From contig NZ_NVQC01000016.1 in assembly GCF_003044035.1 (NCBI RefSeq), positions 1 through 32,000 on the forward strand: 32,000 nt of DNA. Direction: 5' to 3'. Positions 3,277 through 27,034 of the stretch are shown in pieces. Numbering within the stretch: position 1 is the first letter of the stretch; each line of letters opens with the position of its first letter. Source of the stretch: Candidatus Methylomirabilis limnetica (GTDB taxonomy: Bacteria > Methylomirabilota > Methylomirabilia > Methylomirabilales > Methylomirabilaceae). Position numbers and translations under genes: made by a program. The notes below the pieces were generated by a model. It was given only the letters and a program-made list of their open reading frames with translations. It had not been told where the DNA came from and did not search any database.

Positions 3277-3353
3277 TGGCGTCCCCAACGGGATTCGAAC
3301 CCGTGTTTCAGCCTTGAAAGGGCCGCGTCCTGGGCCGGCTAGACGATGGGGAC
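3277..3353 (-). tRNA. tRNA-Glu (anticodon UUC), CCA encoded
   Basis: The reverse complement is GTCCCCATCGTCTAGCCGGCCCAGGACGCGGCCCTTTCAAGGCTGAAACACGGGTTCGAATCCCGTTGGGGACGCCA. It has a 7-bp acceptor stem, a GTTCGAATC T-loop and anticodon loop CTTTCAA, and closely resembles canonical bacterial tRNA-Glu. Confidence 0.93.
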
Positions 3354-3409
3354 ATTGAAGGGAAGACCGGCTCTTTATAACATAGTTCCGGTTACATGGG
3401 AAGGGCTGG

Positions 3410-3793
3410 TTACGAGATCCTTTGGCGGCGGGTCATCACCTCCACCCGGCCACGGTCGTTAATGAACAGATTTAAGAGACCACTGATCAGGCTTAACAGG
3501 ATTGCCCCGAACACCGCAGACCAGAAGCCATGCACCTCGAACCCCTGGATCATCAGCGAGACGAGTTTCAGGAGCGCTGCGTTGAGCAACGGGATGAAAA
3601 GCCCCAGTGTCATGATCGTGAGTGGAAGCGTCAAGATCACGAGCACAGGTCGCACAACGGCGTTGACCACCCCGAGAAAAAAGGCGGCTGACAATGCAGG
3701 CAGGACCCCCCGCACCTCGATGCCAGGGATGACGGTTGATACGATTAAGAGGGCCAGCGCGTTGAGAAAAAGTCGGACGAGAAAGCCCATCAC
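3410..3793 (-). CDS. DUF360 / phage-holin-4_2-type four-TM membrane protein
   Basis: 127 aa and highly hydrophobic (MMGFLVRLFLNALALLIVSTVIPGIEV...LVILTLPLTIMTLGLF). It lies immediately downstream of, and co-oriented with, the adenylase gene. Confidence 0.7.
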   Translation of the reverse strand: MMGFLVRLFLNALALLIVSTVIPGIEVRGVLPALSAAFFLGVVNAVVRPVLVILTLPLTIMTLGLFIPLLNAALLKLVSLMIQGFEVHGFWSAVFGAILLSLISGLLNLFINDRGRVEVMTRRQRIS

Positions 3794-14066: not shown

Positions 14067-15334
14067 TGGAAATCATTGTCCTCGGTCTGAGCTACAAGAC
14101 AGCGCCGATTGAACTCCGGGAGAAGTTTCACGTCCCGGAGTCGGAGCTACCGGAAGTCCTGGAGCAGCTCGGCGGATGCGGGCAGATAGAAGAGCGGATG
14201 ATCCTCTCCACCTGCAACCGGGTGGAGACGTACGCTGTCGTGGACGACGTAGATGGTGCGCGTCAGTTCCTTGTGGAGTTCCTGGCCGAGCGGCACAAGC
14301 TTCCGTTGCAGGCCTTCGAGTCCTCTATGTATCTGTTGACGGCCGATCAGGCCATTCGGCATATCTTCCGTGTTTCGTCGAGCCTTGACGCGATGGTGAT
14401 TGGTGAATCTCAGATCCTGGGCCAGGTGAAGGCGGCGTACGCGATCGCCCTCGAACGGGATGCCACCGGCCCGATTCTCAATGCCCTTATGGAGAGGGCG
14501 TTGCGCGTCGCGAAGCGGGTGCGGACCGAGACCGGGATTGCAACCTTAGCCGTCTCGGTCTCCACCGCCGCCATCGAGCTGGCTAAGAAGATCTTCGGCG
14601 ACCTGTCGGGCCGCACTATCATGCTGATCGGGGCAGGAAAGATGTCGGAGTTGTCGGCCAAGCACTTGCTGGCTGATGGTGTGAGTACGGTGATCGTGAC
14701 CAATCGGCATTTCGATCGTGCGGTAGAATTGGCCGAGCGATGGGGCGGCCGGGCCGTTCCGTTCGATCACGCCAAGTCGGAGATGGTCCATGCCGATATC
14801 GTTATCAGTTCGACCGGAGCCCCGCATCATATCCTGTCCAAGGCTGACCTCCAGGAGATTGTCCTGCAGCGCCGTAATCGTCCGATCTTCGTAATCGATA
14901 TCGCCGTTCCCAGGGATGTCGATCCCAAGGCCAACGAGATCGATAATGTGTACCTCTATGATCTTGATGACCTCCAGGGGGTGGTGCAGGCCAATCTTCT
15001 CGAGCGGCAGCGCGAGGCGGATCTGGCGGAGGCGTTGATCGACCGGGAGGTCGGGCAGTTTGCCGAGTGGCTTACGAGCCTCCATGTCGTCCCGACTATC
15101 GTCGCCATGCGTAAGAAGGTGGAATTAATCCGCGAGGAGGAACTCCAAAAGATTTTTGCGAAACTGCAAGACTTGACTCCAGAGGAGCGTCATACTATCT
15201 CCCTCATGACCGGCTCGATCGTGAACAAGATCCTGCACGAGCCGACGACAGAGCTGAAACGCCAGTCGTCCCTGAAAGAGGGCCACCTCTACGTAAATGT
15301 ACTGCGGAGGCTCTTCGGCATCAGGGAGGAGTAG
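14066..15334 (+). CDS. hemA: Glutamyl-tRNA reductase
   Basis: The start MEIIVLGLSYKTAPIELREKF overlaps the previous stop (TAATG). STCNRVETY contains the catalytic Cys, and GAGKMSEL is the NADPH site. The track ORF start at 13715 is an upstream extension. Confidence 0.95.
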   Translation: MEIIVLGLSYKTAPIELREKFHVPESELPEVLEQLGGCGQIEERMILSTCNRVETYAVVDDVDGARQFLVEFLAERHKLPLQAFESSMYLLTADQAIRHIFRVSSSLDAMVIGESQILGQVKAAYAIALERDATGPILNALMERALRVAKRVRTETGIATLAVSVSTAAIELAKKIFGDLSGRTIMLIGAGKMSELSAKHLLADGVSTVIVTNRHFDRAVELAERWGGRAVPFDHAKSEMVHADIVISSTGAPHHILSKADLQEIVLQRRNRPIFVIDIAVPRDVDPKANEIDNVYLYDLDDLQGVVQANLLERQREADLAEALIDREVGQFAEWLTSLHVVPTIVAMRKKVELIREEELQKIFAKLQDLTPEERHTISLMTGSIVNKILHEPTTELKRQSSLKEGHLYVNVLRRLFGIREE

Positions 15335-17861: not shown

Positions 17862-18313
17862 ATTCCTTAGGATATAGCATTCAACTGTAGGTCGGGTTAG
17901 CGCAGCGTAATCCTACACCACTCGGCTGACCGCTATTTTCTAAGGAACAGCCCATGTGCCACCGGCACACCACGGCGTACGAAAAGGCAACTTCACCCAC
18001 CATCCTCACCTTCCCCCCCGGATCGAGTCCGGGGCAGGCTCTCATGGGTGGGAAGGGACCTCTTACGCGGACTCCTCCCCCCTCGGAGGGGGAGGATACG
18101 GGTGGGGGGGATTTTCTAAGGAAGACAGCAGTTCGCCATGGGCGTGTCGAAGGGTGAAGTAGGTCGGGTTAGCGTAGCGTAACCCGACACCACTCGGCTG
18201 ACCGCTCTCTCAGAATGGCATTTTCGTGAGCCGTGGTGCGGCTGCGGCCGCATGAGGTGTTCCTTCTTCCGCCTGGTACTGAAAGCTGATCGCTGACGGC
18301 TGAAAGCTGACAG
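17862..18313. repeat. Cluster of intergenic structured repeats (families R1, R2 and a heptamer array)
   Basis: - R1 (GTAGGTCGGGTTAGCGYAGCGTAA...ACCACTCGGCTGACCGCT) at 17887-17934 and 18159-18240.
- C-run/G-run palindrome TCCTCCCCCCTCGGAGGGGGAGGA at 18073-18096.
- GGGGGGGATTTTCTAAGG at 18104-18121.
- Five CTGAnnG heptamers at 18279-18313. Confidence 0.85.
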
Positions 18314-18341: not shown

Positions 18342-18611
18342 TTGGCTAAACGAAGTGACAGCGTAGTCGTGTTGTTGGTGATCCTCATATTGGGGGCATT
18401 GATAGGCACCGTGATAGGAGAGGTGATCGCCACCATAGCGCCCGGCGGGACACTGGAAAAGATCTTCAGCAAGGGGATCCATCCCGGTCTCTCCCCGCCC
18501 GCAACCCTCGACCTGAAGATACTGAGCATTTCCTTCGGTTTCACCGTGAAGATCAATCTCTCAAGCCTGCTGGGCATCGGCCTGGCCTTCTTGGTCTATC
18601 GGAAGCTGTGA
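18342..18611 (+). CDS. DUF4321 small membrane protein
   Basis: 89 aa with N- and C-terminal TM helices and the central segment LDLKILSISFGFTVKINLSSLLG. It has the typical position upstream of maf and overlaps the maf start. Confidence 0.7.
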   Translation: MAKRSDSVVVLLVILILGALIGTVIGEVIATIAPGGTLEKIFSKGIHPGLSPPATLDLKILSISFGFTVKINLSSLLGIGLAFLVYRKL

Positions 18612-19192
18612 TTATCCTGGCCTCTGCTTCGCCCCGGCGAGAGACGCTGCTACAGGCGCTGTGGGTCGAGTACCGAGTCATCCCAAGCTTAGTTTCCGAA
18701 GCGGGTCCGCTTCCCGGGACGACGACGGCATCCCACGCCGAAAGCCTAGCTCTTCTAAAGGCGGCCGAGGTGGCAGCTCGGGTGGGGGAGGGGTTGGTCC
18801 TTGGTGCCGACACCATCGTCGAATGTGACGGTCGCCTCCTGGGTAAGCCGAAAGATCAAGGCGAGGCCCGCGGGTTTCTACGCCTGTTGAGCGGTCGGAG
18901 TCATCTCGTGGTGACCGGCCTCGCCCTCGTGGAGATCAGCGATGGTAGAACCGAGGTAGGACACGAGGTGACCGAGGTGCGGATGCGCGCTTTGACGAGC
19001 GAGGAGATTGACGCCTACGTGCAGACGGGCGAACCGTTAGATAAGGCCGGTGGCTACGCGATCCAGGGTGCTGCCGGGACCTTCATCGAGGGGATCAAAG
19101 GAAGCTTTACAAACGTGGTCGGACTCCCACTCGGCAGGCTACGAACCCTGCTTCTGCGTTTTGGCATCGATCCGCTCCATCGGCAGGTCTGA
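18608..19192 (+). CDS. maf: Maf-like nucleoside triphosphate pyrophosphatase
   Basis: Contains IILASASPRR, GADTIV, GKP and KAGGYAIQG. Confidence 0.9.
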   Translation: MIILASASPRRETLLQALWVEYRVIPSLVSEAGPLPGTTTASHAESLALLKAAEVAARVGEGLVLGADTIVECDGRLLGKPKDQGEARGFLRLLSGRSHLVVTGLALVEISDGRTEVGHEVTEVRMRALTSEEIDAYVQTGEPLDKAGGYAIQGAAGTFIEGIKGSFTNVVGLPLGRLRTLLLRFGIDPLHRQV

Positions 19193-19201
19193 GGGCAGAC
19201 T

Positions 19202-19545
19202 TTAGCGAACAGCCATCAGGAGTTGGCAGCCGTGCTCGGGCCAAGCCCATAGGCCCTCCGCCCCGCACGTGAGTATAGACCATCGTTGTGCTGACGTCTG
19301 CGTGCCGAGAAGTTTCTGGACCGTGCGAATGCCACACCCGCCCGCTTCGACTACACCCCGTTTGACCGCATGCCACCCCCGAATCTCGTAGAGGTGATGG
19401 CGCCGCCGGCCGCCGCCACTCATCGATACCCAGGTCTTCGAATACCCGCAAGTACCCCGCCAACCACCAGAGATCCGGGTTGAAGGGGGCCACATGCCCA
19501 CGCCTGAAGTGTCGGATATCATCGTCCGCATTGCCCAGTAAGTCC
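19202..19545 (-). pseudogene. intI: Integron-integrase-type tyrosine recombinase: C-terminal remnant with frameshifts and an internal deletion
   Basis: Minus-strand frames give ...GGRRRHHLYEIRGWHAVKRGVVEAG-[box II region missing]-GIRTVQKLLG, then in another frame HADVSTTMVYTHVRGGGP. The RRHH..E...AVKRAV..AG and DIRTVQ.LLGH.DV.TTMIYTHV patterns are those of IntI. The N-terminal two-thirds or so is absent. Confidence 0.65.
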
Positions 19546-19557
19546 CCTGGCCTCAGC

Positions 19558-19611
19558 GTAGGGGCGACCCTTGTGGTCGCCCAATCCGGGCAGGCACAAG
19601 GCCTGCCCCTA
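19558..19611. repeat. Cloverleaf-like palindromic element
   Basis: An outer stem GTAGGGGC/GCCCCTAC encloses two hairpins: GCGACC-cttgt-GGTCGC and GGGCAGGC-acaa-GCCTGCCC. It sits exactly where the intI homology stops. Confidence 0.75.
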
Positions 19612-19692
19612 CAAAGGGGAGGAGGATGGAGGGTGCACGCTACCAACTTTCATGCCCATGGGCGCACCGCAGGCGCATGGGGTATTGCTTCG

Positions 19693-19757
19693 AAAGTCCC
19701 CCCTCAACTTTCCCTTCCCCCCTGGGGGGGGAAGGGGGGGGGGGGGGGGGGGACTTT
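19693..19757. repeat. Nested palindrome containing G8 and G19 homopolymer runs
   Basis: AAAGTCCCCCC (19693-19703) pairs with GGGGGGACTTT (19747-19757). Inside, CCCTTCCCCCC pairs with GGGGGGGGAAGGG. The runs are 8 G at 19724-19731 and 19 G at 19734-19752. Confidence 0.85.
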
Positions 19758-19886
19758 AGGGTCAATGACACACCCCTATCTCTTTGTTTTTACGTCACTA
19801 GTATCGTATTGCATTTTATGCATCACTATCGTAGAGTCCGTCCAAGAAGTGTCGGCTAATATCTGTTGTGCGGAAATGTGAAACAC

Positions 19887-20180
19887 ATGAATCAGCAACT
19901 CGTTAACGCCATCCGGAACAGGAAGATGATCGAGTTCGATTGCGGAGGTCATCACCGTGTAGCGGAGCCACACGTGTATGGACGCAACGGTGGTGCCGAG
20001 CAACTCTTGGTCCACCAAGTTGGAGGCGGTAGCTCGTCCGGGGGGCTTCCTGAGTGGAGACGTGTAGATGTTCCCCGAATGAGTGGATTGGTCACCCTGG
20101 ACGACACCTTTCCTGGACCTAGGCCGAGTCCGTCTGGGCAACACAGCAGATGGGATGAGACCTATGAGATCGTGATATGA
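19887..20180 (+). CDS. Cassette 1: small WYL/Sm-like beta-barrel-type hypothetical protein
   Basis: MNQQLVNAIRNRKMIEFDCGGHHRVAEPHVYG...GLPEWRRVDVPRMSGLVTLDDTF resembles short WYL-like proteins. The family assignment is tentative. The ORF starts 16 nt after a GTTGTGC core. Confidence 0.5.
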   Translation: MNQQLVNAIRNRKMIEFDCGGHHRVAEPHVYGRNGGAEQLLVHQVGGGSSSGGLPEWRRVDVPRMSGLVTLDDTFPGPRPSPSGQHSRWDETYEIVI

Positions 20181-20190
20181 CCTTTGGGCA

Positions 20191-20263
20191 CTCTAACAGG
20201 GCGCTGCACGCGACGGCCTTGTTGGTGATTGTGAGCGGCCGCGCGTGAGCGCTGACGTTCAGC
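20191..20263 (+). other. Candidate attC site 1
   Basis: CTCTAAC ... GTTCAGC. The arms pair as AAC/GTT, GCGCT/AGCGC and CACGCG/CGCGTG, with one unpaired G in the left arm. The next ORF starts 10 nt downstream. Confidence 0.5.
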
Positions 20264-20272
20264 GATGAGATC

Positions 20273-20620
20273 ATGAAACGAATCTGGATACCGCAAGTCG
20301 TCACGAGCGCGATGCTGCTATGGGCGCTCAGCCCGGACAATCCCTACGGATATTACATCCTTCTGCGTTGGGTGTGCTGTGCTGTCTTTGCCTATCTCGC
20401 GATTCAGGCGCTTGCCCAAGGGAAGCAGGGTTGGGTATGGGTTCTCGGCGTTACCGCGGTGGTTTACAATCCCATCATCCGAGTTCACCTGACAAGGCAG
20501 ATTTGGTCAGTCATCAATGTGACCACCATAGTAGTAGCTGTGGCGTCGATCTTCGCTCTGAAAGACGAGTGTGGAAGGAAAGAATCATCGAACAAGACGG
20601 CTGCAGGCGACTCGCAATAG
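20273..20620 (+). CDS. Cassette 2a: small multi-TM membrane protein (DUF6804-like; assignment tentative)
   Basis: 115 aa. Contains NPYGYYILLRWVCCAVFAYLA...VYNPIIRVHLTRQIWSVINV and 3-4 hydrophobic helices. Confidence 0.55.
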   Translation: MKRIWIPQVVTSAMLLWALSPDNPYGYYILLRWVCCAVFAYLAIQALAQGKQGWVWVLGVTAVVYNPIIRVHLTRQIWSVINVTTIVVAVASIFALKDECGRKESSNKTAAGDSQ

Positions 20621-20664
20621 CTCGCGCCTAATCCGCAACGTTATCCATGCAAGGGAGAGCGACC

Positions 20665-21231
20665 GTGAAGATAATCATGACCTCATTGTTGCTGTTCCTG
20701 TTCGCGTTCGGGATAGGCGCCGCCGTCCATGCGCAAGGCATCGAATGGGAGACGCTCAATGATGAGGCCACCTCGCTGTACAAGCAAGGACACTATGACC
20801 GCGCGGTGGTCGTGGCGAAAAAGGCCTTGGCGGTCGCCGAGGAAGCGGTTGGGCGCGATCATCCCGCTGTGGCCACGAGCTTAAATAACCTCGCTTTGCT
20901 GTACAAGACCCAAGGCCAGTACGCGCAGGCTGAGCCGCTCTACAGGCGCTCACTGGCGATTTATGAGAAGGCCCTCGGCCCGAATCATCCTGCTGTCGCC
21001 ACGAGCCTGAACAACCTCGCAGAGATCTACCACACCCAAGGCCAGTACGCGCAGGCTGAGCCGCTCTACAGGCGCTCACTGGCGATCCGGGAGAAGGCCC
21101 TCGGCCCGAATCATCCCGATGTGGCCATAAGCCTTGAGAATATGGCGGCGCTCTTTCGAAAAACCGGCCGGGAAAAGGAAGCAGAGGTACTAGAGAAGCG
21201 AGCCGCAGACATCCGGGCAATAAAGCGATGA
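20665..21231 (+). CDS. Cassette 2b: exported tetratricopeptide-repeat protein (TPR_12-type units)
   Basis: GTG at 20665 with AAGGGAG upstream. Signal peptide VKIIMTSLLLFLFAFGIGAAVHA. Repeated HPxVATSLNNLAxLYxTQGQYAQAEPLYRRSLAI units. Confidence 0.8.
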   Translation: MKIIMTSLLLFLFAFGIGAAVHAQGIEWETLNDEATSLYKQGHYDRAVVVAKKALAVAEEAVGRDHPAVATSLNNLALLYKTQGQYAQAEPLYRRSLAIYEKALGPNHPAVATSLNNLAEIYHTQGQYAQAEPLYRRSLAIREKALGPNHPDVAISLENMAALFRKTGREKEAEVLEKRAADIRAIKR

Positions 21232-21239
21232 AATCAAAT

Positions 21240-21310
21240 GGCCAACAAGACACTGCACCTGATGGCAATTTCGCTACGCTCCATTGCCGCTGGTGAGCTT
21301 GGTGTTAGAC
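21240..21310 (+). other. Candidate attC site 2
   Basis: GGCCAAC ... GTTAGAC, where the right core is a perfect GTTRRRY. Stems are AACA/TGTT, CACC/GGTG and GGCAAT/ATTGCC around a 13-nt loop. Confidence 0.55.
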
Positions 21311-21327
21311 CGATTCATGGATAGTTG

Positions 21328-21957
21328 ATGCAACAAGGGGACGTGACCGCCAGGCGGTTTACGGAGCTTGAACGCCAGATGGCGAGAGTCCAACCCTCGG
21401 GTAACAGCCCCAGCGGGGAGTGGTATGAGTGGGCGACCAGCGTCCTCAATCTACTCCAGCGAGCCTTTGGCGCAGAATCGGCTCACCTTCAGAACTTTCA
21501 GCGTGTCTACAACAACTTCACAGGCTGGGGGTCCGACGTTGAGGCCGCAAAGGGAGTGTTCCGTGCCGCAAAGACTGATTATGACGGTGGCTACATCTTC
21601 AATCTCGAGACGGCCATCTCTGGTGAGATTTTCGGAGATTTCGTCGGCTTGGCAAAGCGCTCTCTGGCCGAAGGCCACAAGGATGTTGCAGCCGTTCTCG
21701 CCTGTGCTGCCCTCGAGGATGTCCTCAAACGTTTTGCCGCCCGGCATCGAATCGATACTGCCGATCGATCCATGCAGGACGTCGTCAACGCTCTCAAAGC
21801 AAAGGGCCTGGTAGGTGGCGCCCAGAAGACTCTTCTCGGCACGATGCCAAAGATCAGGGACTACGCAATGCATGCGGAATGGACAAAGATCGATCCCGCT
21901 GATGTAAGCAGCGTGATCGGTTTCGTCGAGCAATTTCTGATCTCTCACTTCTCGTAA
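21328..21957 (+). CDS. Cassette 3: HEPN-superfamily (DUF4145-like) protein with an Rx4H motif
   Basis: The C-terminal domain, AVLACAALEDVLKRF...LKAKGLVGGAQKTLLGTMPKIRDYAMHAEW, matches the DUF4145/HEPN layout, with R-DYAM-H as the Rx4H motif. I did not recognise the N-terminal ~110 aa. Confidence 0.6.
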   Translation: MQQGDVTARRFTELERQMARVQPSGNSPSGEWYEWATSVLNLLQRAFGAESAHLQNFQRVYNNFTGWGSDVEAAKGVFRAAKTDYDGGYIFNLETAISGEIFGDFVGLAKRSLAEGHKDVAAVLACAALEDVLKRFAARHRIDTADRSMQDVVNALKAKGLVGGAQKTLLGTMPKIRDYAMHAEWTKIDPADVSSVIGFVEQFLISHFS

Positions 21958-22027
21958 CAGCAGATAGCAGATCACTCCAGCGACTGGCACAAAAAGCCGT
22001 GCCAGTCGCTGAGCTTTGTCGTTCGAC
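21952..22027 (+). other. Candidate attC site 3
   Basis: TCGTAAC (overlapping the TAA stop) ... GTTCGAC, with a perfect 13-bp hairpin CAGCGACTGGCAC/GTGCCAGTCGCTG (21978-21990 and 21999-22011). Confidence 0.5.
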
Positions 22028-22064
22028 CCCGCCTGCGCAGGTGTCGTGGTGGAGTGAATGATCG

Positions 22065-22093
22065 TTGACAAGTTGTAATCGTTCGATTACAAT
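22065..22093 (+). promoter_or_regulatory. Cassette-internal sigma70 promoter with an overlapping operator palindrome
   Basis: TTGACA (22065-22070), a 17-nt spacer, then TACAAT (22088-22093). The 20-bp palindrome TTGTAATCGTTCGATTACAA (22073-22092) spans the spacer and the -10. An ATG at 22100 lies 6 nt after the -10. Confidence 0.6.
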
Positions 22094-22134
22094 CTTCCCA
22101 TGTTCTTGATCAAACCCATGCCCGAATTTACCGA

Positions 22135-22392
22135 ATGGCTGGACGTCTGTCCGATGCGTCGGTGCGCGGGGTGGTTGCGGCGCGCATCAAGCGCCTGGAG
22201 CGCGGCTTGATGGGGGACGTGGAGCCGGTTGGCGACGGGGTGTCAGAGATGCGCATTCATGTCGGCGCGGGCTGGCGCATGTATTTCGCGCAGCGTGGCG
22301 GTCAGTTGATTGTATTGCTCGTTGGCGGCTCCAAGCGTACCCAGAAGACTGACATCAAGCGCGCCAAGGCATTGGCGGCGCTATTGGATTGA
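22135..22392 (+). CDS. Cassette 4: addiction-module killer protein (RelE/ParE superfamily), possibly 5'-frameshifted
   Basis: GDVEPVGDGVSEMRIHVGAGWRMYFAQRGGQLIVLLVGGSKRTQKTDIKRAKAL matches the killer-protein family. The expected N-terminus (MFLIKPMPEFTEWLD) lies in a different frame, starting at 22100. Confidence 0.7.
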   Translation: MAGRLSDASVRGVVAARIKRLERGLMGDVEPVGDGVSEMRIHVGAGWRMYFAQRGGQLIVLLVGGSKRTQKTDIKRAKALAALLD

Positions 22393-22407
22393 GTGAAGGA
22401 GATGACC

Positions 22408-22713
22408 ATGCCCCAACGTATCAAGGTGGCTGACTTGCCCGAGTTTGATGCCGCGCCGTATCTCGACAGCGAGGCGGCAGTTGCGGCGTACCTGACGGAT
22501 ATTCTAGAAGCGAACGATTCGTCTTTGCTGGCGTCGGCCTTGGGAGACATCGCTCGGGCGCGTGGCATGAGTGAGATTGCCAAGGCATCGGGACTGACCC
22601 GCGAAGCCTTGTACAAGGCGCTCAGACCCAATGCAAAGCCGCGCTACGACACCATCGCGAAAGTCTGTGGGGCGCTGGGGGTGCGGCTGGTGGCACAGGC
22701 GATTCATGCTTGA
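22408..22713 (+). CDS. Cassette 4: addiction-module antidote protein (HigA-type HTH antitoxin)
   Basis: FDAAPYLDSEAAVAAYLTDILEAND...IARARGMSEIAKASGLTREALYKALRPNAKPRYDTIAKVCGALGVRL. GAAGGAG lies 6 nt before the ATG at 22408. Confidence 0.8.
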   Translation: MPQRIKVADLPEFDAAPYLDSEAAVAAYLTDILEANDSSLLASALGDIARARGMSEIAKASGLTREALYKALRPNAKPRYDTIAKVCGALGVRLVAQAIHA

Positions 22714-22729
22714 GTCTCCAAAGTCTGAG

Positions 22730-22971
22730 CGGTCGGGGAGATAGGTAACAAAACAGTCCGGGGACATAGGTTACACTTTGTGGCGTGCTAATCTACCATA
22801 TTCATCCTTGATGCGCATATGTCGTTCATGGAGCCGGCCGAGTTTCAGCGGGCCGGTGTAGTAGACGTTCCAAATGCCATCGTCGATTTTTTCCAGGCCA
22901 ACATACTCCCCTACGGGTTGGAGATGCTTCGCATTTCTCCCCCGCCTGCGCTAACCTGACCGCCGCTCAGC
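22730..22971 (-). mobile_element. Copy 1 of a ~240-bp repeat carrying the 3' tail of an rve-type (IS481/IS3-like) transposase gene
   Basis: The minus frame reads GEYVGLEKIDDGIWNVYYTGPLKLGRLHERHMRIKDEYGRLARHKV*, followed by PMSPDCFVTYLPD. There is a stop immediately upstream and no catalytic domain. Copy 2 lies at 24427-24665. Confidence 0.5.
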
Positions 22972-23013
22972 TTGAACATCGGTTCGACATCAGATCCTCC
23001 GCGGCCGTTAGAG
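22949..23013 (+). other. Candidate attC site 4
   Basis: GCGCTAAC ... GTTAGAG, with CTAAC..C.GCCGC pairing to GCGGC.C.GTTAG. The left arm belongs to the ~240-bp repeat. Confidence 0.45.
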
Positions 23014-23016
23014 TGA

Positions 23017-23045
23017 TTGACACCGCCCCTATGTGTTGGTATTCT
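23017..23045 (+). promoter_or_regulatory. Cassette-internal sigma70 promoter
   Basis: TTGACA (23017-23022), a 17-nt spacer, then TATTCT (23040-23045). The ATG at 23053 lies 7 nt after the -10, which suggests a leaderless mRNA. Confidence 0.5.
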
Positions 23046-23052
23046 CTCCAAC

Positions 23053-23349
23053 ATGAAGGCAGTGCCCCTGCTTCACCGCCGAGTAGTTGTTGCCGTCGAC
23101 GCATTCGTCGAGGTGGTGATTTGGCAAGTTCCGGAACCGGTTCCGCCGTCGACGCATGAATTGAAGTACCGGCTGGCCTATGTCGTTGGTGGGAAATGCG
23201 TGTTGCGTTACGACAACGAACGAGGAACAGGTGATCACCGACACACCGAAGCAGCCCAAGAGCCTTACAACTTTTCTACGCCGGATCAACTGATGACCGA
23301 TTTCGAATCGGACGTGGCGAGGTGGAATCATGAACACGGTCGTTCTTGA
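23053..23349 (+). CDS. Cassette 5: DUF6516/TumE-like putative toxin
   Basis: AFVEVVIWQVPEPVPPSTHELKYRLAYVVGGKCVLRYDNERGTGDHRHTEAAQEPYNF, including the conserved YDNE.G.GDHRH core. Confidence 0.6.
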   Translation: MKAVPLLHRRVVVAVDAFVEVVIWQVPEPVPPSTHELKYRLAYVVGGKCVLRYDNERGTGDHRHTEAAQEPYNFSTPDQLMTDFESDVARWNHEHGRS

Positions 23350-23677
23350 AGTTCGGTCTCTCAAAGGCACGTTGGCCGATGCCGCAAGTACAATGAAAAC
23401 TAGGCGCGCGGAGCGCGAGGCGCGCATCAGCTTCGCGACACCGGAACTGCTCTGGGAGGTGCTGACGGCCAAGCGGTGGGGACTTCTCAAAGCCCTTTGT
23501 GGGGCCGGCCCCGTATCGATCCGCGAGGCCGCGCGTCGGGTTGGGCGCGATGTGAAAGCCGTCCATGGCGACGTGACAGCACTCCTGGAGGCTGGGGTGC
23601 TGAGCCGCGTACCCGATGGGCGCATCGAGTTTCCGTTCGACGCTGTGAAAGTAGAGTTCCTACTGCGAGCGGCATAA
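23330..23677 (+). CDS. Cassette 5: winged-HTH DNA-binding partner (putative antitoxin/regulator)
   Basis: It overlaps the upstream gene by 20 nt. ISFATPELLWEVLTAKRWGLLKALCGAGPVSIREAARRVGRDVKAVHGDVTALLEAGVL is typical of the HTH partner of DUF6516 proteins. Confidence 0.6.
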   Translation: MNTVVLEVRSLKGTLADAASTMKTRRAEREARISFATPELLWEVLTAKRWGLLKALCGAGPVSIREAARRVGRDVKAVHGDVTALLEAGVLSRVPDGRIEFPFDAVKVEFLLRAA

Positions 23678-23691
23678 GCCGGAGGCGGCTG

Positions 23692-23811
23692 ATGCCTAAC
23701 AAAGGCTTCAACCGGACACAGTACCACCCTTTCCACGTGTCGATTCCTGAAGGCCAAGATACCACCGGTCTTGTCATGGTCGAGCAGATCAAGTCGATCG
23801 ATTTCCGTTGA
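23692..23811 (+). pseudogene. MazF/PemK-family toxin, C-terminal stub only (39 aa)
   Basis: MPNKGFNRTQYHPFHVSIPEGQDTTGLVMVEQIKSIDFR matches the family's C-terminus (P..V.I....GL...S.V...QI.tID..R). The N-terminal ~70 aa are absent. The first codons coincide with a GCCTAAC core. Confidence 0.5.
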
Positions 23812-23861
23812 ACGGATAATAGGGACAGCGACCATTTAAGCTTGATACACAAAGAGGATGT

Positions 23862-23918
23862 GCCTAACAAATCGTTCCAGGGATGGCGTAAACGCCGCCG
23901 CTGAACTCGCCGTTATGC
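23862..23918 (+). other. Candidate attC site 5 (57 bp)
   Basis: GCCTAAC (a perfect RYYYAAC) ... GTTATGC. The arms AACAAATCGTTCCAGGGATGGCG and CGCCGCCGCTGAACTCGCCGTT pair imperfectly around a TAAA loop. Confidence 0.5.
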
Positions 23919-23956
23919 ATCAGAAATCGCCGGACTAAATAAATAGGGATTATCGA

Positions 23957-24217
23957 ATGGGGAAGTATTCAAAGCTCAGGGAGAAAATATTGGCTGGCGG
24001 TGCCGACTCAAACATCGAGTTCGCCGACCTGTGTAAGTTACTTGGCCGCCTTGGCTTTGAAGAACGGGTGAGGGGTGATCATCATATTTTCACCCTGGGT
24101 GGCGTTGCCGAGATCATCAATTTACAACCGAAGGGCAAAAAGGCTAAACCGTATCAAGTCAAGCAGGTCAGGAATACTCTTGTAACATATCGATTAGGAG
24201 AAGGCGATGTCGATTAA
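23957..24217 (+). CDS. hicA: Cassette 6: HicA mRNA-interferase toxin
   Basis: LCKLLGRLGFEERVRGDHHIFT...KAKPYQVKQVRNTL shows YcfA/HicA features. It overlaps the hicB start. Confidence 0.8.
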   Translation: MGKYSKLREKILAGGADSNIEFADLCKLLGRLGFEERVRGDHHIFTLGGVAEIINLQPKGKKAKPYQVKQVRNTLVTYRLGEGDVD

Positions 24218-24419
24218 GTATGAACTCGTGATCTACTGGAGCGATGAGGATCAAAGCTTTGTGGTCGAGGTCCCAGAACTGCCTGGGTGCATGGCAGACG
24301 GAGAGACCTACGAGCAAGCTGTTGCGAATGCGCAAGAAGTGATCGAGGAGTGGATCGAGACCGCTCGGGAGCTCAATCGTCCAATTCCACAACCCCGGGG
24401 TCGGCTGATGTATGCATAA
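24207..24419 (+). CDS. hicB: Cassette 6: HicB antitoxin
   Basis: YELVIYWSDEDQSFVVEVPELPGCMADGETYEQAVANAQEVIEEWIETARELNRPIPQP. Confidence 0.85.
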   Translation: MSIKYELVIYWSDEDQSFVVEVPELPGCMADGETYEQAVANAQEVIEEWIETARELNRPIPQPRGRLMYA

Positions 24420-24426
24420 TAATAAC

Positions 24427-24665
24427 CGGTCGGGGAGATAGGTAACAAAACAGTCCGGAGACATGGGTTACATTTTATGACGTTGTAATCTACCATGTTC
24501 GTCCTCAACGCGCATGTGTCGTTCATGGAGCCGACCGAGCGTGTGCGGGCCGAAGTAGACGCTCCAGATGCCATCGTCGATTTCTTCCGGGCCTACATAC
24601 TCCTCGACGTGTTGAAAATGCTTCGCATTTCTCCCCCGCCTGCGCGAACCTGACCGCCGGTCAGC
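24427..24665 (-). mobile_element. Copy 2 of the ~240-bp repeat with a transposase-tail remnant
   Basis: The minus frame reads EEYVGPEEIDDGIWSVYFGPHTLGRLHERHMRVEDEHGRLQRHKM*, followed by PMSPDCFVTYLPD. It is collinear with copy 1 from CGGTCGGGGAGATAGGTAAC through CTGACCGCCG. Confidence 0.5.
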
Positions 24666-24723
24666 CCGTATTGGGCACTAGGAAGTCGGCCCTCGCATTG
24701 ACGCAAGTTCGTATGAGTGCTAA

Positions 24724-24930
24724 CCTTCATTACTAGTATTATCCGCCGAGTACTTCCATGAGCGAGTTCAGGCCGAGATCGAGGCCTCCGGAAAGCATGC
24801 GCCCTCGGTGGGCTCGCTGAAGCGATACGCCGCTGCTGTTGGTTGTACACTCAAGAACAAACTTATCCCAACTGTGCCCAACCAAGCCTTCGAGCGGGCC
24901 TGCCGCATAAAGCTGCGGCAGGCCGCTTAA
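24724..24930 (+). pseudogene. XRE-type HTH antitoxin, C-terminal remnant without a start codon
   Basis: The frame opens after the TAA at 24721 and reads ...IEASGKHAPSVGSLKRYAAAVGCTLKNKLIP.... This resembles the helix-3 to C-terminal part of HigA/XRE antitoxins. No ATG, GTG or TTG start is present. Confidence 0.4.
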
Positions 24931-25030
24931 CGTGAACATTCGGCGGCACGGAGAATTCGTATCGATTCGGATCGATCAAGAGGTATGCTGAAGCTGAAAG
25001 GGTTTCCGGTCGAAGGTCGGTAGGTTGTGC
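24925..25030 (+). other. Candidate attC site 6 (long, weakly paired)
   Basis: GCTTAAC (a perfect RYYYAAC overlapping the stop) ... GTTGTGC. The GTTGTGCGG core is identical to the one at 19865-19873. Arm pairing is only partial by eye. Confidence 0.35.
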
Positions 25031-25046
25031 GGGAAGGGGGTTCCCT

Positions 25047-25364
25047 ATGCCTGAGATCGTGCGGAACCGGAAGGAAGTAATCGAACGCCTGGAATCAGCC
25101 GAGGCCGCGATCCGTGCGCTGGGGGTTCGGCGGCTCGCGCTGTTTGGCTCGTTTGTTCGGGAAGCGGCGTCGCTCGACAGTGATGTCGATGTCCTGGTCG
25201 AGTTCGAGCCCGAACGGAAAACATACGACCGGTTTCTCGATCTCTCGGAACTCTTGGAGCGCCTGCTTGGACGTCGTGTTGAGATCGTGACGACCGAGTC
25301 GCTGAGTCCCCATCTCGGCGCTTATATCCTTTCCGAGGCCAGAGATGTCATTCGAGCCGCTTGA
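25047..25364 (+). CDS. mntA: Cassette 7: MNT-type nucleotidyltransferase antitoxin
   Basis: [24 protein letters not shown] contains the GS...D.D nucleotidyltransferase motif. It overlaps hepT by 20 nt. Confidence 0.85.
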
Positions 25365-25719
25365 GTACCTGCGTCACATCCTCATCGAGGCAGACTATCT
25401 GGCCGAGCAGTGCGCATCGCTCAGTAAGGAGCAATTGCTGGCCGACGAAACCTTGCGCCGGGCGTTTGCGCGAAGTCTGGAGGTCATTGGTGAAGCCGCC
25501 AAGAAAGTACCCGATGCGTTTCGCGAGCAGCATCCCGAGGTGGAATGGCGGGCAATGGCCGGCATGCGCTACCGACTGATCCATGGGTACTTCGGTGTGG
25601 ATTACGAGCTTGTGTGGGATGCCGTGAAGAACAAGGTACCCGTTTTGAGGGGTCAAATCGTAAACATCCTCCGTGATGCGGGCAGCCGCACCCAGCCCAA
25701 AGACCCGACGAGTCGTTGA
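25345..25719 (+). CDS. hepT: Cassette 7: HepT (DUF86) HEPN RNase toxin
   Basis: [12 protein letters not shown]...[25 protein letters not shown], with the Rx4HxY motif. Confidence 0.85.
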
Positions 25720-25869
25720 ACTGTACCCGGAAGACATCCCGCCGAATATCGGGATCGAGCGGACTGGCGGTGCCGGGACGGAACGGGGGATCGCTGCTTG
25801 CGGCTCATCGCGGGCATTGGCCCTGAGGTGGAGAATGCGGTATATTTGTGACCAAGTAAGGAGAACACC

Positions 25870-26070
25870 GTGACAACTGTGGAGACGATCGAGCGCGCCA
25901 TCGAGCAACTTCCTTCCGAAGAACTCGCGAAGCTTCGACGCTGGTTCTTGGAGTTCGATGCTGCTGCTTGGGATGCCCAGATTGAGGCAGATGCTGCTGC
26001 CGGAAAGTTCGACGCGTTAGCTGAAGAGGCGCTAGCTGAATATCGCACCGGTAGGGCGCGCGAGATGTGA
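25870..26070 (+). CDS. Orphan antitoxin-like protein (partner type of RelE/ParE toxins)
   Basis: GTG start with AAGGAG upstream. IEQLPSEELAKLRRWFLEFDAAAWDAQIEADAAAGKFDALAEEALAEY is typical of small antitoxins. Downstream there is only a 32-codon stub (26067-26162). Confidence 0.6.
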   Translation: MTTVETIERAIEQLPSEELAKLRRWFLEFDAAAWDAQIEADAAAGKFDALAEEALAEYRTGRAREM

Positions 26071-26131
26071 GGTACTTCACAATAATGCTTCTCTGGCTGC
26101 AATATTTGAGCAATACCCTATACGGCTCGGT

Positions 26132-26254
26132 CGTACCACGGCGCACGAGAATGCCATTCTGAGAGAGCGGCCAGCCGAGTGTTGTCGGGTTACGCTGCGC
26201 TAACCCGACCTACGGCTGACTACGGCTGACGGCTGATCGCCATTTTCTAAGGAA
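26132..26254. repeat. Intergenic repeat cluster (R1 copy in reverse orientation, GGCTGA repeats, ATTTTCTAAGGAA motif)
   Basis: The reverse complement of 26132-26213 aligns almost base-for-base with 18159-18240. TACGGCTGAC occurs twice (26211-26230), and ATTTTCTAAGGAA lies at 26242-26254. Confidence 0.85.
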
Positions 26255-26267
26255 TGTTCACACAGCT

Positions 26268-26861
26268 ATGGTGAATCGGATCGACGCGAAGCAGGAATAT
26301 ATTCTGGGGATTACCGGGGCCAGCGGGGTCGTTCTTGGCATCCGGACGCTTGAGGTGCTCCAGGAACTGAGGCTGCCCGTCCATCTGATCGTGTCCGAAG
26401 GGGCGAAGGCGACACTTCGGGAAGAAAGCGGACGCACGATGGAGGATCTCAAGCGCCTTGCCACCTTTTTCCACGACGATCGGGACCTCGGCGCTTCCAT
26501 CTCGAGCGGCTCCTACGTCTCGCCCAACGTGGCCGCGATGATTGTCTCGCCTTGCTCGATGAAGAGCCTGGCGGCCATCGCTACCGGTTACACCGAGACC
26601 TTGATCGCCAGAGCGGCTGACGTTGTCCTGAAGGAGGGGAAGCGCCTTGCTCTTGTGGTGAGGGAGAGCCCCTTTACCGCCATCCACCTGGAACAGATGT
26701 TGACATTGGCAAGGTCGGGCGTCAAAATCGTTCCGCCAGTGCCGCCGTTCTATCAGAGGGCACAAACGGTCGAGGAGTTAGTGGATCAGATCGTCGGACG
26801 GGCGCTGGATCAGATCGGTCTGCACACCGACTTACCAAATCGGTGGCTGGGCACAGGATAA
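26268..26861 (+). CDS. ubiX: Flavin prenyltransferase UbiX
   Basis: Contains ILGITGASGVVLGIRTLEVL, IVSPCSMKSLAAIATGY and LVVRESPFTAIHLEQM. Confidence 0.92.
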   Translation: MVNRIDAKQEYILGITGASGVVLGIRTLEVLQELRLPVHLIVSEGAKATLREESGRTMEDLKRLATFFHDDRDLGASISSGSYVSPNVAAMIVSPCSMKSLAAIATGYTETLIARAADVVLKEGKRLALVVRESPFTAIHLEQMLTLARSGVKIVPPVPPFYQRAQTVEELVDQIVGRALDQIGLHTDLPNRWLGTG

Positions 26862-27034
26862 CGATCGAGGCGCTGCCGGCGAACGTACTCACCCGATTCG
26901 TTATCCACTTCCGTTCGGCGCCATTCCATGCTATACAGCTTGATCGAGTATTAGCGAGCTGCGTGGTCTGGCAGGGAAGCGAGGAGATTGGGGAAAGAGC
27001 TGTGTATAGTCGTCATTTTGAAGGATAATCTGAC

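Follow-up and report, generated by a model that had tools for sequence, protein, structure and literature searches.

The window analyzed here is a 32,000-nt stretch of the genome of Candidatus Methylomirabilis limnetica (NC10), positions 1 to 32,000 of contig NZ_NVQC01000016.1 (assembly GCF_003044035.1). In it, the core genes maf and ubiX flank an interval that opens with a minus-strand recombinase remnant, continues with ~250 nt of repetitive extragenic palindrome (REP)-like sequences and a G-run, and is then filled with plus-strand genes up to ubiX. A first-pass annotation, made from the letters alone, had taken this interval for a decayed chromosomal integron. Integrons carry a tyrosine recombinase gene, intI, that is divergent from an array of promoterless gene cassettes. 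The IntI recombinase folds the bottom strand of the attC site of each cassette and recombines it with attI or with another attC at the G|TT of the R' box, by which cassettes are inserted, excised, and reshuffled. We give a probability of about 0.9 to the reading that positions 19193-26257 are a degenerate sedentary chromosomal integron. Its surviving parts are a dead intI stub, a conserved attI, and ~10 same-strand cassettes or cassette remnants. Besides four to five recognizable attC sites, the array has several that are truncated, and it contains four intact toxin-antitoxin (TA) pairs and two fragments resembling the insertion sequence (IS) IS481.

The features of the interval and its flanking genes are given below from left to right. 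Cargo families were assigned with Pfam, and NCBIfam was also tried on open reading frames (ORFs) without a family; R1 is a covariance model of attC sites.

18608-19192, plus strand: maf, the left flanking core gene (Pfam Maf, 1.1e-56)
19205-19531, minus strand: intI pseudogene, C-terminal ~110 codons only (TIGR02249, VchIntIA alignment, tblastn, and a hidden Markov model of the IntI-specific patch)
19545-19770, no strand: REP-like palindromes and G-run in place of the lost intI 5' part (inverted repeats I1 and I2)
19770-19871, plus strand: putative attI, ~95 nt conserved, ending CTAATATCTG|TT (crossover G19865|T19866; comparison of five genomes)
19866-20257, plus strand: cassette 1, 104-aa ORF (to 20180) and attC_a (bounded by the attI crossover and attC_a)
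20191-20263, plus strand: attC_a, complete (R1, architecture scan, and fold)
20258-20646, plus strand: cassette 2, DUF6804 gene at 20273-20620 (Pfam DUF6804, 8.8e-25)
20641-21310, plus strand: cassette 3, TPR protein at 20647-21231 (Pfam TPR_12, 3.6e-56) and attC_b (21240-21310, GGCCAAC...GTTAGAC)
21305-22027, plus strand: cassette 4, DUF4145 protein at 21325-21957 (Pfam DUF4145, 5e-5) and a partial attC
22022-22729, plus strand: cassette 5 genes, with a promoter-like site at 22065-22093, Gp49/HigB-like toxin at 22135-22392, and HI1420-type antitoxin at 22393-22713 (Pfam Gp49; dnstrm_HI1420, 1.8e-33)
22730-22907, minus strand: IS481-like fragment A, a true IS terminus and the last ~50 transposase codons (direct repeat, homologs, and L041 alignment)
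22908-22988, plus strand: 3' two-thirds of attC_x, ending in R' GTTCGAC (G22982|T22983; intact copies in L047 and L053)
22983-23715, plus strand: cassette 6, with a promoter-like site at 23017-23045, TumE toxin (to 23349), and TumA/HVO_A0114 antitoxin at 23330-23677 (Pfam TumE, 6e-16; HVO_A0114, 2e-27)
23716-23918, plus strand: MazF/PemK C-terminal stub (to 23811; Pfam PemK, 0.002) and attC_c (23862-23918; R1)
23913-24426, plus strand: cassette 7 genes, HicA at 23957-24217 and HicB at 24207-24419, starting TTATGCATCAG (Pfam HicA and HicB)
24427-24598, minus strand: IS481-like fragment B, bounded at the same two points as A (direct repeat and alignment)
24599-24676, plus strand: remainder of a second attC_x copy, ending in R' ATTGGGC (A24670|T24671; alignment with L047 and L053)
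24671-24944, plus strand: cassette 8, helix-turn-helix (HTH)-antitoxin-like stub and attC_d (24876-24944, GCCCAAC...ATTCGGC; A24938|T24939; R1, architecture scan, and fold)
24939-25822, plus strand: cassette 9, MNT at 25047-25364, HepT at 25345-25719, and the weak site attC_e (Pfam NTP_transf_2; HepT-like, 4.9e-26)
25817-26130, plus strand: cassette 10, 66-aa ORF at 25870-26070, attC lost (homology to L001 and L047)
26160-26257, no strand: REP-like cluster at the right island edge (repeat family D8; resembles 18159-18240)
26268-26861, plus strand: ubiX, the right flanking core gene (Pfam Flavoprotein, 7.7e-38)

Every ORF with a Pfam match between 19866 and ubiX (26268) lies on the plus strand, as the first-pass annotation had stated for all credible genes. 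The sole minus-strand coding remains to the right of 19866 are the two transposase C-terminal fragments, which it had missed. Its seven cassettes become ~10 cassettes or remnants, and its five TA modules become four intact pairs plus stubs. The attI site, and the mapping of cassette junctions exactly to the G|TT crossover, go beyond what it had described.

A full-text literature search returned no paper describing an integron in Methylomirabilis. The single substantive mention concerned a group IIC-attC intron of M. oxyfera, listed as lying outside any cassette array. The integron reading explains a 7-kb stretch that is otherwise annotated as hypothetical proteins and TA genes, and it brings the NC10 lineage of nitrite-dependent methane oxidizers into the host range of integrons. 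The type of element is well known and the host is unusual; the finding extends rather than changes the picture of integrons.

Cassette junctions in related genomes

Scans with Maf recovered ~30 Methylomirabilis-like loci; these and other comparison contigs are labeled L001, L042, L047, and so on. At ~17 related loci (L002, L003, L006, L007, L009, L017, L043, L044, L049, L052, L054, L055, L056, L058, L059, L060, and L062), maf is followed directly by ubiX across a short gap without an island. Two of these, L043 and L044, have the closest Maf (89%), and the empty site of L043 reads ...GGTCTGA ACA GTGGTGAATCGG. Occupied loci with partly different content were found in L001, L042, L045, L047, L048, and L053. 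By this comparison, the content of the maf-ubiX interval appears to be an insertion.

The left end of the insertion is conserved among five genomes. The window, L053, L047, L045, and L048 share ~95 nt ending ...GTCGGCTAATATYTG (CTG|TT), and after the TT they diverge fully, continuing as TTGTGCGGAAATG, TTAGGCGGACATG, TTAGCCTTCTCTG, TTAGGCCTCGTTG, and TTAGCGGTCTATG. We read the conserved ~95 nt as a probable attI site joined to five different first cassettes.

Similar switches were found within the arrays. In the window, L053, and L045, the TPR cassette starts TTA[G/T]CCAT[A/G]CAAGGGAGAG, each time after a different and unrelated sequence; its predecessor is an R1-positive attC (2336-2408) in L053 and the remnant of the DUF6804 site in the window, where the junction is G20640|TT. 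The HicAB cassette (TTATGCATCAG) follows attC_c (...TCGCCG|) in the window and the body of attC_d (...TTGAACA|) in L047. The sequence joined to this attC_d body in the window is TTCGGCGGCACGG, with which the MNT-HepT cassette starts. The 66-aa cassette starts TT[A/G]GCCC..GGAGAATGCGG behind three attC ends (A25816|TT in the window, G11635|TT in L001, and A|TT near 14180 in L047), and its blastn alignment with L001 begins at the first T. Homology therefore switches exactly at G/A|TT for the TPR, HicAB, and 66-aa cassettes and for the attC_d body, each in two to three contexts. Junctions at the canonical crossover are the strongest evidence for an integron, as IntI recombination would yield such switches and the formation of a generic island does not predict them. 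At this locus, IntI would once have folded the bottom strands of the attC sites and recombined them with attI or with one another at the G|TT of R', and its activity would once have inserted, excised, and reshuffled cassettes in the array between maf and ubiX.

attC sites

Rfam has no attC family; its only match at gathering score in the window was a tRNA gene (3280-3353, minus strand), and matches were otherwise only noise on the G-run. We therefore used R1, a covariance model made from 10 validated class 1 attC sites (aadA1, aadA2, qacL, blaGES, aac(6')-Il, aac(3)-Ib, blaVIM-1, aacA4, dfrA12, and qnrVC4) and independent of this locus. The sites were cut from eight class 1 integrons on plasmids, their bottom-strand folds were checked and were as expected, and long central parts were trimmed; the model represents the bottom strand with its R-box, spacer, L-box, and two-bulge structure. 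Searched with filters off against both strands of the window and L001 (44.8 kb), R1 gave the following matches.

23862-23918, minus strand: attC_c, 26.9 bits, E = 1.3e-4
20191-20263, minus strand: attC_a, 18.9 bits, E = 0.016
24876-24944, minus strand: attC_d, 17.4 bits, E = 0.038
26856-26906, plus strand: hairpin after ubiX, 15.5 bits, E = 0.12
21240-21310, minus strand: attC_b, 9.4 bits, E = 4.7

The four minus-strand matches are intergenic, lie within the island, and have the bottom-strand orientation expected for plus-strand cassettes. In the positive control, the environmental integron L019, R1 gave four matches over two runs, each of them on the expected strand and immediately downstream of a cassette gene. 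The control locus (L019, 1-10400) comes from a high-GC organism and has a frameshifted intI and ~12 minus-strand cassettes, with an IS110-family element inserted into the array. All eight R1 matches in the occupied related loci were on the bottom strand, and seven of them lay downstream of maf. The strongest match among the related loci (L048, 1147-1209, 27.9 bits) lies outside the maf-ubiX island, ~9 kb upstream of maf; in L048, the 10 kb downstream of maf contain no ubiX.

An architecture scan, which scores pairing in the canonical layout and ignores sequence except for AAC/GTT anchors, was consistent with R1. At a score of at least 14, it found three sites on the bottom strand (20191, 21240, and 23862) and none on the other strand; in 200 dinucleotide-preserving shuffles, the number of sites averaged 0.10 and did not exceed 2. 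Use of AAY/RTT anchors added 24876-24944 with the top score of 15 (attC_d), compared with 14.5 for attC_a, 14.0 for attC_b, 14.5 for attC_c, and 13 for attC_e. In the L019 control, the scan found four sites scoring at least 15 on the right strand and none of at least 14 on the wrong strand. Folding of the bottom strands, a check proposed in the first-pass annotation, gave z = -3.8 for attC_a and z = -4.0 for attC_d and was not significant for attC_e. No intrinsic-terminator-like site with a T-run was found to coincide with any attC. The site attC_a (CTCTAAC...GTTCAGC) has arms of 7-5-3-bulge-6-bulge-5 and 5-6-3-6-7, and attC_c reads GCCTAAC AAATC GTT[C]CAG...CTGAAC TCGCC GTTATGC.

The attC-like palindromes that had been noticed in the gaps were borne out by three R1 matches with E below 0.05 and by the excess over 200 shuffles, although the one given as 106 bp had been misframed. 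Nor are the sites complete throughout. The attC of cassette 2 retains only its R' end (...CGCAAC GTTATCC, 20634-20646). That of cassette 4 keeps its 3' two-thirds (21968-22027, with R' GTTCGAC at 22021), which are 93% identical to part of L042 12215-12278, a full R1-scored site with R'' GCCCAAC. Only the left half of the cassette 6 site is left (23692-23715, GCCTAAC AAAGG CTTCAACCGG), fused to the mazF stub. The orthologous TumEA unit of L001 keeps the whole attC palindrome, and neither R1 nor the architecture scan scores that copy. Two further sites have had their 5' parts replaced by IS sequence. The weak site attC_e (25741-25822, GCCGAAT...ATTGGCC) has canonical box spacing, a compensated AAT/ATT pair, and a poor central stem, and it is counted only because the junction with the next cassette falls on its A25816|T25817. 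No attC site follows the last cassette.

Other candidates and procedures were set aside. A crude attC scan (6/7 R-box complementarity plus a fold-energy threshold) was too strict and found only the hairpin after ubiX, and when whole gaps were folded freely, most of them did not yield an attC shape. The candidate at 24927-25031 (GCTTAAC...GTTGTGC) was rejected because its GCTTAAC is the L' box of attC_d. The match at 26856-26906 was rejected because it is on the wrong strand and because the hairpin is kept after ubiX in the empty-site loci L002 and L003. The hairpin is an almost perfect palindrome (GGATAACGATCG...CGATTCGTTATCC) that includes the last bases of ubiX, whose stop is at 26861; it is probably a terminator or a regulatory hairpin. 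A palindrome at L001 11563-11636 looked canonical by eye and was scored by neither R1 nor the architecture scan.

The integrase remnant and the history of the array

The recombinase remnant abuts the maf stop codon (19192), and its IntI character, proposed in the first-pass annotation, was confirmed by tblastn of IntI homologs, which aligned 19498-19298 in one frame, interrupted by a gap of 21 aa, and 19304-19242 in another, the latter reading HADVSTTMVYTHV. The first ~200 IntI codons are missing, with nothing IntI-like upstream of ~19545. A 21-aa deletion removes the HxxR catalytic box, and a frameshift precedes box II. Among solved structures, the closest is Vibrio IntI4/VchIntIA (2a3v), with residues 222-260 and 277-313 aligned; the gap between these two blocks takes out the HxxR box.

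For the conceptual translation of the remnant, the integron integrase family TIGR02249 was the top NCBIfam family at 46 bits, compared with 31-34 bits for the XerC and XerD models, and the score against Pfam PF00589 was 27.0 against a cutoff of 27.1. We also made an IntI-specific profile from nine database homologs, limited to the stretch between 'LPDAL..KYPNA' and the HxxR box, which comprises the IntI-specific region and the RRRHH motif. It matched the segment 19205-19552 on the minus strand (26 bits, E = 2.6e-7), the sole match among 858 six-frame segments (runner-up, E ~1); the remnant covers positions 25-57 only of the profile. The nearest database homologs are IntI proteins, with scores of 154-255 bits for TIGR02249 and <100 bits for every Xer model. 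The best non-self protein matches are 40-48% identical, and the protein search found no close intact homolog. The stub has been deposited as a 73-aa 'hypothetical protein' of M. limnetica (100% identical). These scores place the remnant in the IntI clade, as a pseudogene. An assignment to XerC/XerD or to a phage integrase was rejected on the lower Xer scores and the presence of the IntI patch. Given the truncation, the HxxR deletion, and the frameshift, the gene is neither intact nor catalytically competent.

These results leave the integron interpretation of the first-pass annotation standing on the three points at which it had offered itself for rejection: the attC covariance search gave significant, correctly oriented, intergenic matches, the recombinase scores as IntI rather than Xer, and the interval is empty in some relatives and filled with different cassettes in others.

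Could the interval instead be a generic TA or defense island at a recombination hotspot next to maf, with a stub from an unrelated integrative element and palindromes that are terminators or REP sequences? TA modules and REP-like palindromes are abundant in the genome, the latter in clusters at 17881-18162, 19545-19770, and 26160-26240, and one R1 match, the conserved hairpin after ubiX, is on the wrong strand. However, the remnant contains the IntI-specific patch, the attC matches are strand specific with canonical box spacing and bulges and lack T-run terminators, and junctions exactly at G|TT in four independent comparisons contradict this explanation, which we consider very improbable.

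Several points weigh against the integron reading. R1 is a homemade model of 10 trimmed sites with rough E-values and is not the IntegronFinder model. Only three sites have E < 0.05, and attC_b, attC_e, and 21968-22027 are weak or partial. No Pc promoter was found; a consensus scan of the attI region came up without any promoter-like site. Nowhere was an intact orthologous IntI found, and past activity is read from the junctions only. First cassettes differ among lineages with the same dead intI, so that a purely fossil model needs precise deletions. Finally, three sites carry A|TT instead of G|TT. On this last point, attC_d has A|TT in both the window and L047 and yet joins two different cassettes, which makes the A a property of the site and not a recent decay. 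There is also a class 1 precedent in pNA6 (L023, ~3338-3436), at the junction of ereA with dfrA1, where dfrA1 starts TTAACC after GCGCGA and the core is ATT.

The lesions in intI are shared among relatives. The 21-aa deletion is common to the window, L042 (Maf 87%), and L053 (Maf 76%); its junction is a stop codon in L042 and L053 and a Cys codon in the window. The 5' truncation point near 19523-19544 is common to the window, L045, L047, L048, and L053. Because these lesions are common to diverged lineages, the integrase would have died before those lineages split, and we infer that the common ancestor of several Methylomirabilis lineages already had an inactive integrase. In L050 (1247-1363) and L051 (10688-10804), a different IntI C-terminal fragment lies just 3' of maf on the same strand as maf, which suggests a second, independent integron remnant at the maf locus in a lineage with 77% Maf identity.

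In three other M. limnetica samples, the array has its cassettes in the same order and an identity of 98.7-99.96%, and the metagenome contig L029 is 99.96% identical to the window over 18.7 kb. With the shared intI lesions, this agrees with the earlier description of the array as fossilized. Shared cassettes diverge roughly like core genes: the TPR cassette is 88% identical and maf ~82.5% in L053, HicAB is 95% compared with ~90% in L047, and TumEA is 90.6% compared with 87.5% in L001. Such divergence would be expected if the cassettes had descended vertically from a larger ancestral array and been lost differentially, and most present differences between arrays seem to have arisen by such loss. 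The array appears to be a static island at present, and its TA modules may help to retain it.

A different history would have the platform still alive, with cassettes exchanged at attI and served in trans by an integron integrase from another part of the genome or from a visiting element. The five lineages with truncated intI have five attI-proximal cassettes, each joined exactly at G|TT, and the shared cassettes are distal, as insertion at attI would lead one to expect. L047 and the window carry the HicAB and stub-attC_d cassettes in a different order, a second, different IntI fragment occurs at the maf locus in L050 and L051, and L048 has its strong attC match 9 kb upstream of maf. Against these observations stand the near identity of the array across M. 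limnetica samples, the lack of any close intact homolog of the remnant in the protein search, and the identities of shared cassettes (88-95%) relative to core genes (82-90%), which fit vertical descent with loss. Moreover, precise deletions between GTTRRRY microhomologies do not need an integrase. We regard servicing in trans as doubtful and favor the static, degenerate integron. The related contigs form a natural decay series (empty sites, arrays with differing cassettes, and eroded arrays) with one dead integrase in common, and they could be used to ask how arrays decay and whether servicing in trans is possible.

Gillings et al. reportedly described, in 2005, a chromosomal integron of Xanthomonas downstream of ilvD. 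In that element, ancestral acquisition was followed by early lineage-specific inactivation of intI, and arrays are steadier where intI is dead (Colombi et al. 2025, bioRxiv 10.1101/2025.06.18.660453). It is the closest parallel to the maf-ubiX element, with a fixed locus beside a core gene, early loss of intI, and arrays that differ between species. The maf-ubiX element differs in its NC10/Methylomirabilota host, in that no lineage with an intact intI was found and many relatives have cleanly lost the whole element, in its TA-dominated cargo, and in the IS fragments in its attC sites.

Sedentary integrons typically hold TA cassettes with their own promoters. The array resembles the Vibrio cholerae superintegron in its same-strand attC cassettes, in its TA cassettes with apparent promoters of their own, and in the recurrence of one attC type (attC_x); unlike that superintegron, it has ~10 rather than ~180 cassettes, heterogeneous attC sites, and a dead integrase. 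Among class 1 sites, that of blaVIM-1, which begins GCATAAC AAATC GTT..., is very close to attC_c, sharing the R''-spacer-L'' TAACAAATCGTTC and the 7-5-3-bulge layout. In contrast to class 1 mobile integrons, the element lies on neither a transposon nor a plasmid, it has no resistance genes, and three of its sites have A|TT. IntegronFinder would probably class the locus as a cluster of attC sites lacking integron-integrases (CALIN) beside a pseudo-intI; the CALIN label is for loci in which two or more attC sites lie no more than 4 kb apart and no intI is detected by both profiles. Like CALINs, it has at least two clustered attC sites without a functional integrase, and an IntI C-terminal pseudogene within 10 kb, a feature recorded for 15 of 279 CALINs (Cury et al. 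2016, PMC4889954); unlike them, it also keeps a mappable attI.

IS481-like fragments, cargo, and flanking repeats

A 245-nt direct repeat at 22730-22971 and 24427-24665 (85-89% identical) accounts for both minus-strand transposase fragments. The left part of the repeat comes from a minus-strand IS481-like element, of which it is the 3' end; homologs of the transposase C terminus read ...GEYVGLEEIDDGIWNVYFGPLKLGRL..., and the IS terminus was defined by alignment with the unrelated copy L041. The right ~60 nt are not IS sequence and correspond to the body of a compact attC that is intact in L047 (13525-13606, with a second copy near 14890) and in L053 (from 3258). Intact attC_x reads GCCTAAC TCCGG CGGGTTGGAAATRCTTCGCATTTCTC.CCCGCCTGCGC.AACCTGACCGCCGGTCAGC GGCGC N|TT and scores 16-18.6 bits with R1. 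Since its body is intact in L047 and L053, the HI1420 and HicAB attC sites of the window would have lost their R'' ends to the IS piece.

The IS terminus lies 17 nt past the cassette stop codon in copy A, 7 nt past it in copy B, and 9 nt past it in the TPR cassette of L053, in each case directly after an R''-like core (GTCTGAG, TAATAAC, and ATCTGAC, respectively). The element could prefer attC R'' cores (CTAG/TAAC). Copies A and B share the same inner boundary. The 3' fragment is fused to the attC_x body in both window copies, in L001 (10626-10851), and in L053 (3128-3330). We think it unlikely that an integrase-less attI platform across Methylomirabilis species gained cassettes in trans after the death of intI and that, in addition, the IS481-like element is an undescribed attC-targeting DDE insertion sequence (termini at 22730, 24427, and L053 ~3128).

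That IS481-like transposition assembled the island, as a composite transposon or by IS-mediated rearrangement, is extremely improbable. Two IS fragments do lie in the array and a third in L053, each with a true terminus right after a cassette ORF. However, the pieces are truncated, in the same orientation, and internal rather than flanking the array, they interrupt attC sites that are intact in relatives, and what is found at the borders of the island is intI and attI rather than IS ends.

Reading the 245-nt repeat as a miniature inverted-repeat transposable element with terminal inverted repeats was rejected, as its inner end falls inside the transposase frame and the putative repeats are inconsistent between copies. 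We also rejected the idea that 84-aa transposase-like proteins form a small gene family; in the one contig inspected, the ORF was at the very start of the contig and was probably a truncated gene call. A tblastn search of plasmids with the transposase fragment gave no match.

The four intact TA pairs are Gp49-like/HI1420, TumE/TumA, HicA/HicB, and MNT/HepT. Pfam and NCBIfam gave no family for the cassette 1 ORF, the 66-aa ORF, the antitoxin-like stub, or the transposase fragment, and the identity of the HTH-antitoxin-like stub is unconfirmed by any family model. A consensus scan placed strong promoter-like sites ahead of two TA cassettes, at 22065-22093 (TTGACA-17-TACAAT) and 23017-23045, and a weak one (9/12) at the start of the 66-aa cassette. 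The Gp49/HigB-like toxin has an apparent N-terminal frameshift at 22103-22140, with MFLIKPMPEFTEWLD in one frame and the rest, from 22135, in another; restoring one base raised the Pfam score from 32.1 to 34.5 bits. From its reading frame, the toxin may be inactivated, with the antitoxin intact. In the TPR gene, a 126-nt tandem duplication (79% identical) at 20828-21079 corresponds to repeated TPR units, and the TPR genes of L053 and L045 apparently have one extra unit.

REP-like families occur at 17881-18162, 19545-19770, and 26160-26240 (GTCGGGTTACGCTGCGCTAACCCGAC; GTAGGGGCGACC...GGGCAGGCACAAGGCCTGCCCCTAC; GCTGA-rich repeats), and the G-run (~25 nt) is at 19726-19750. These repeats fill the position of the lost 5' half of intI and lie at both island edges, and they are also present in the maf-ubiX spacer of empty-site relatives.

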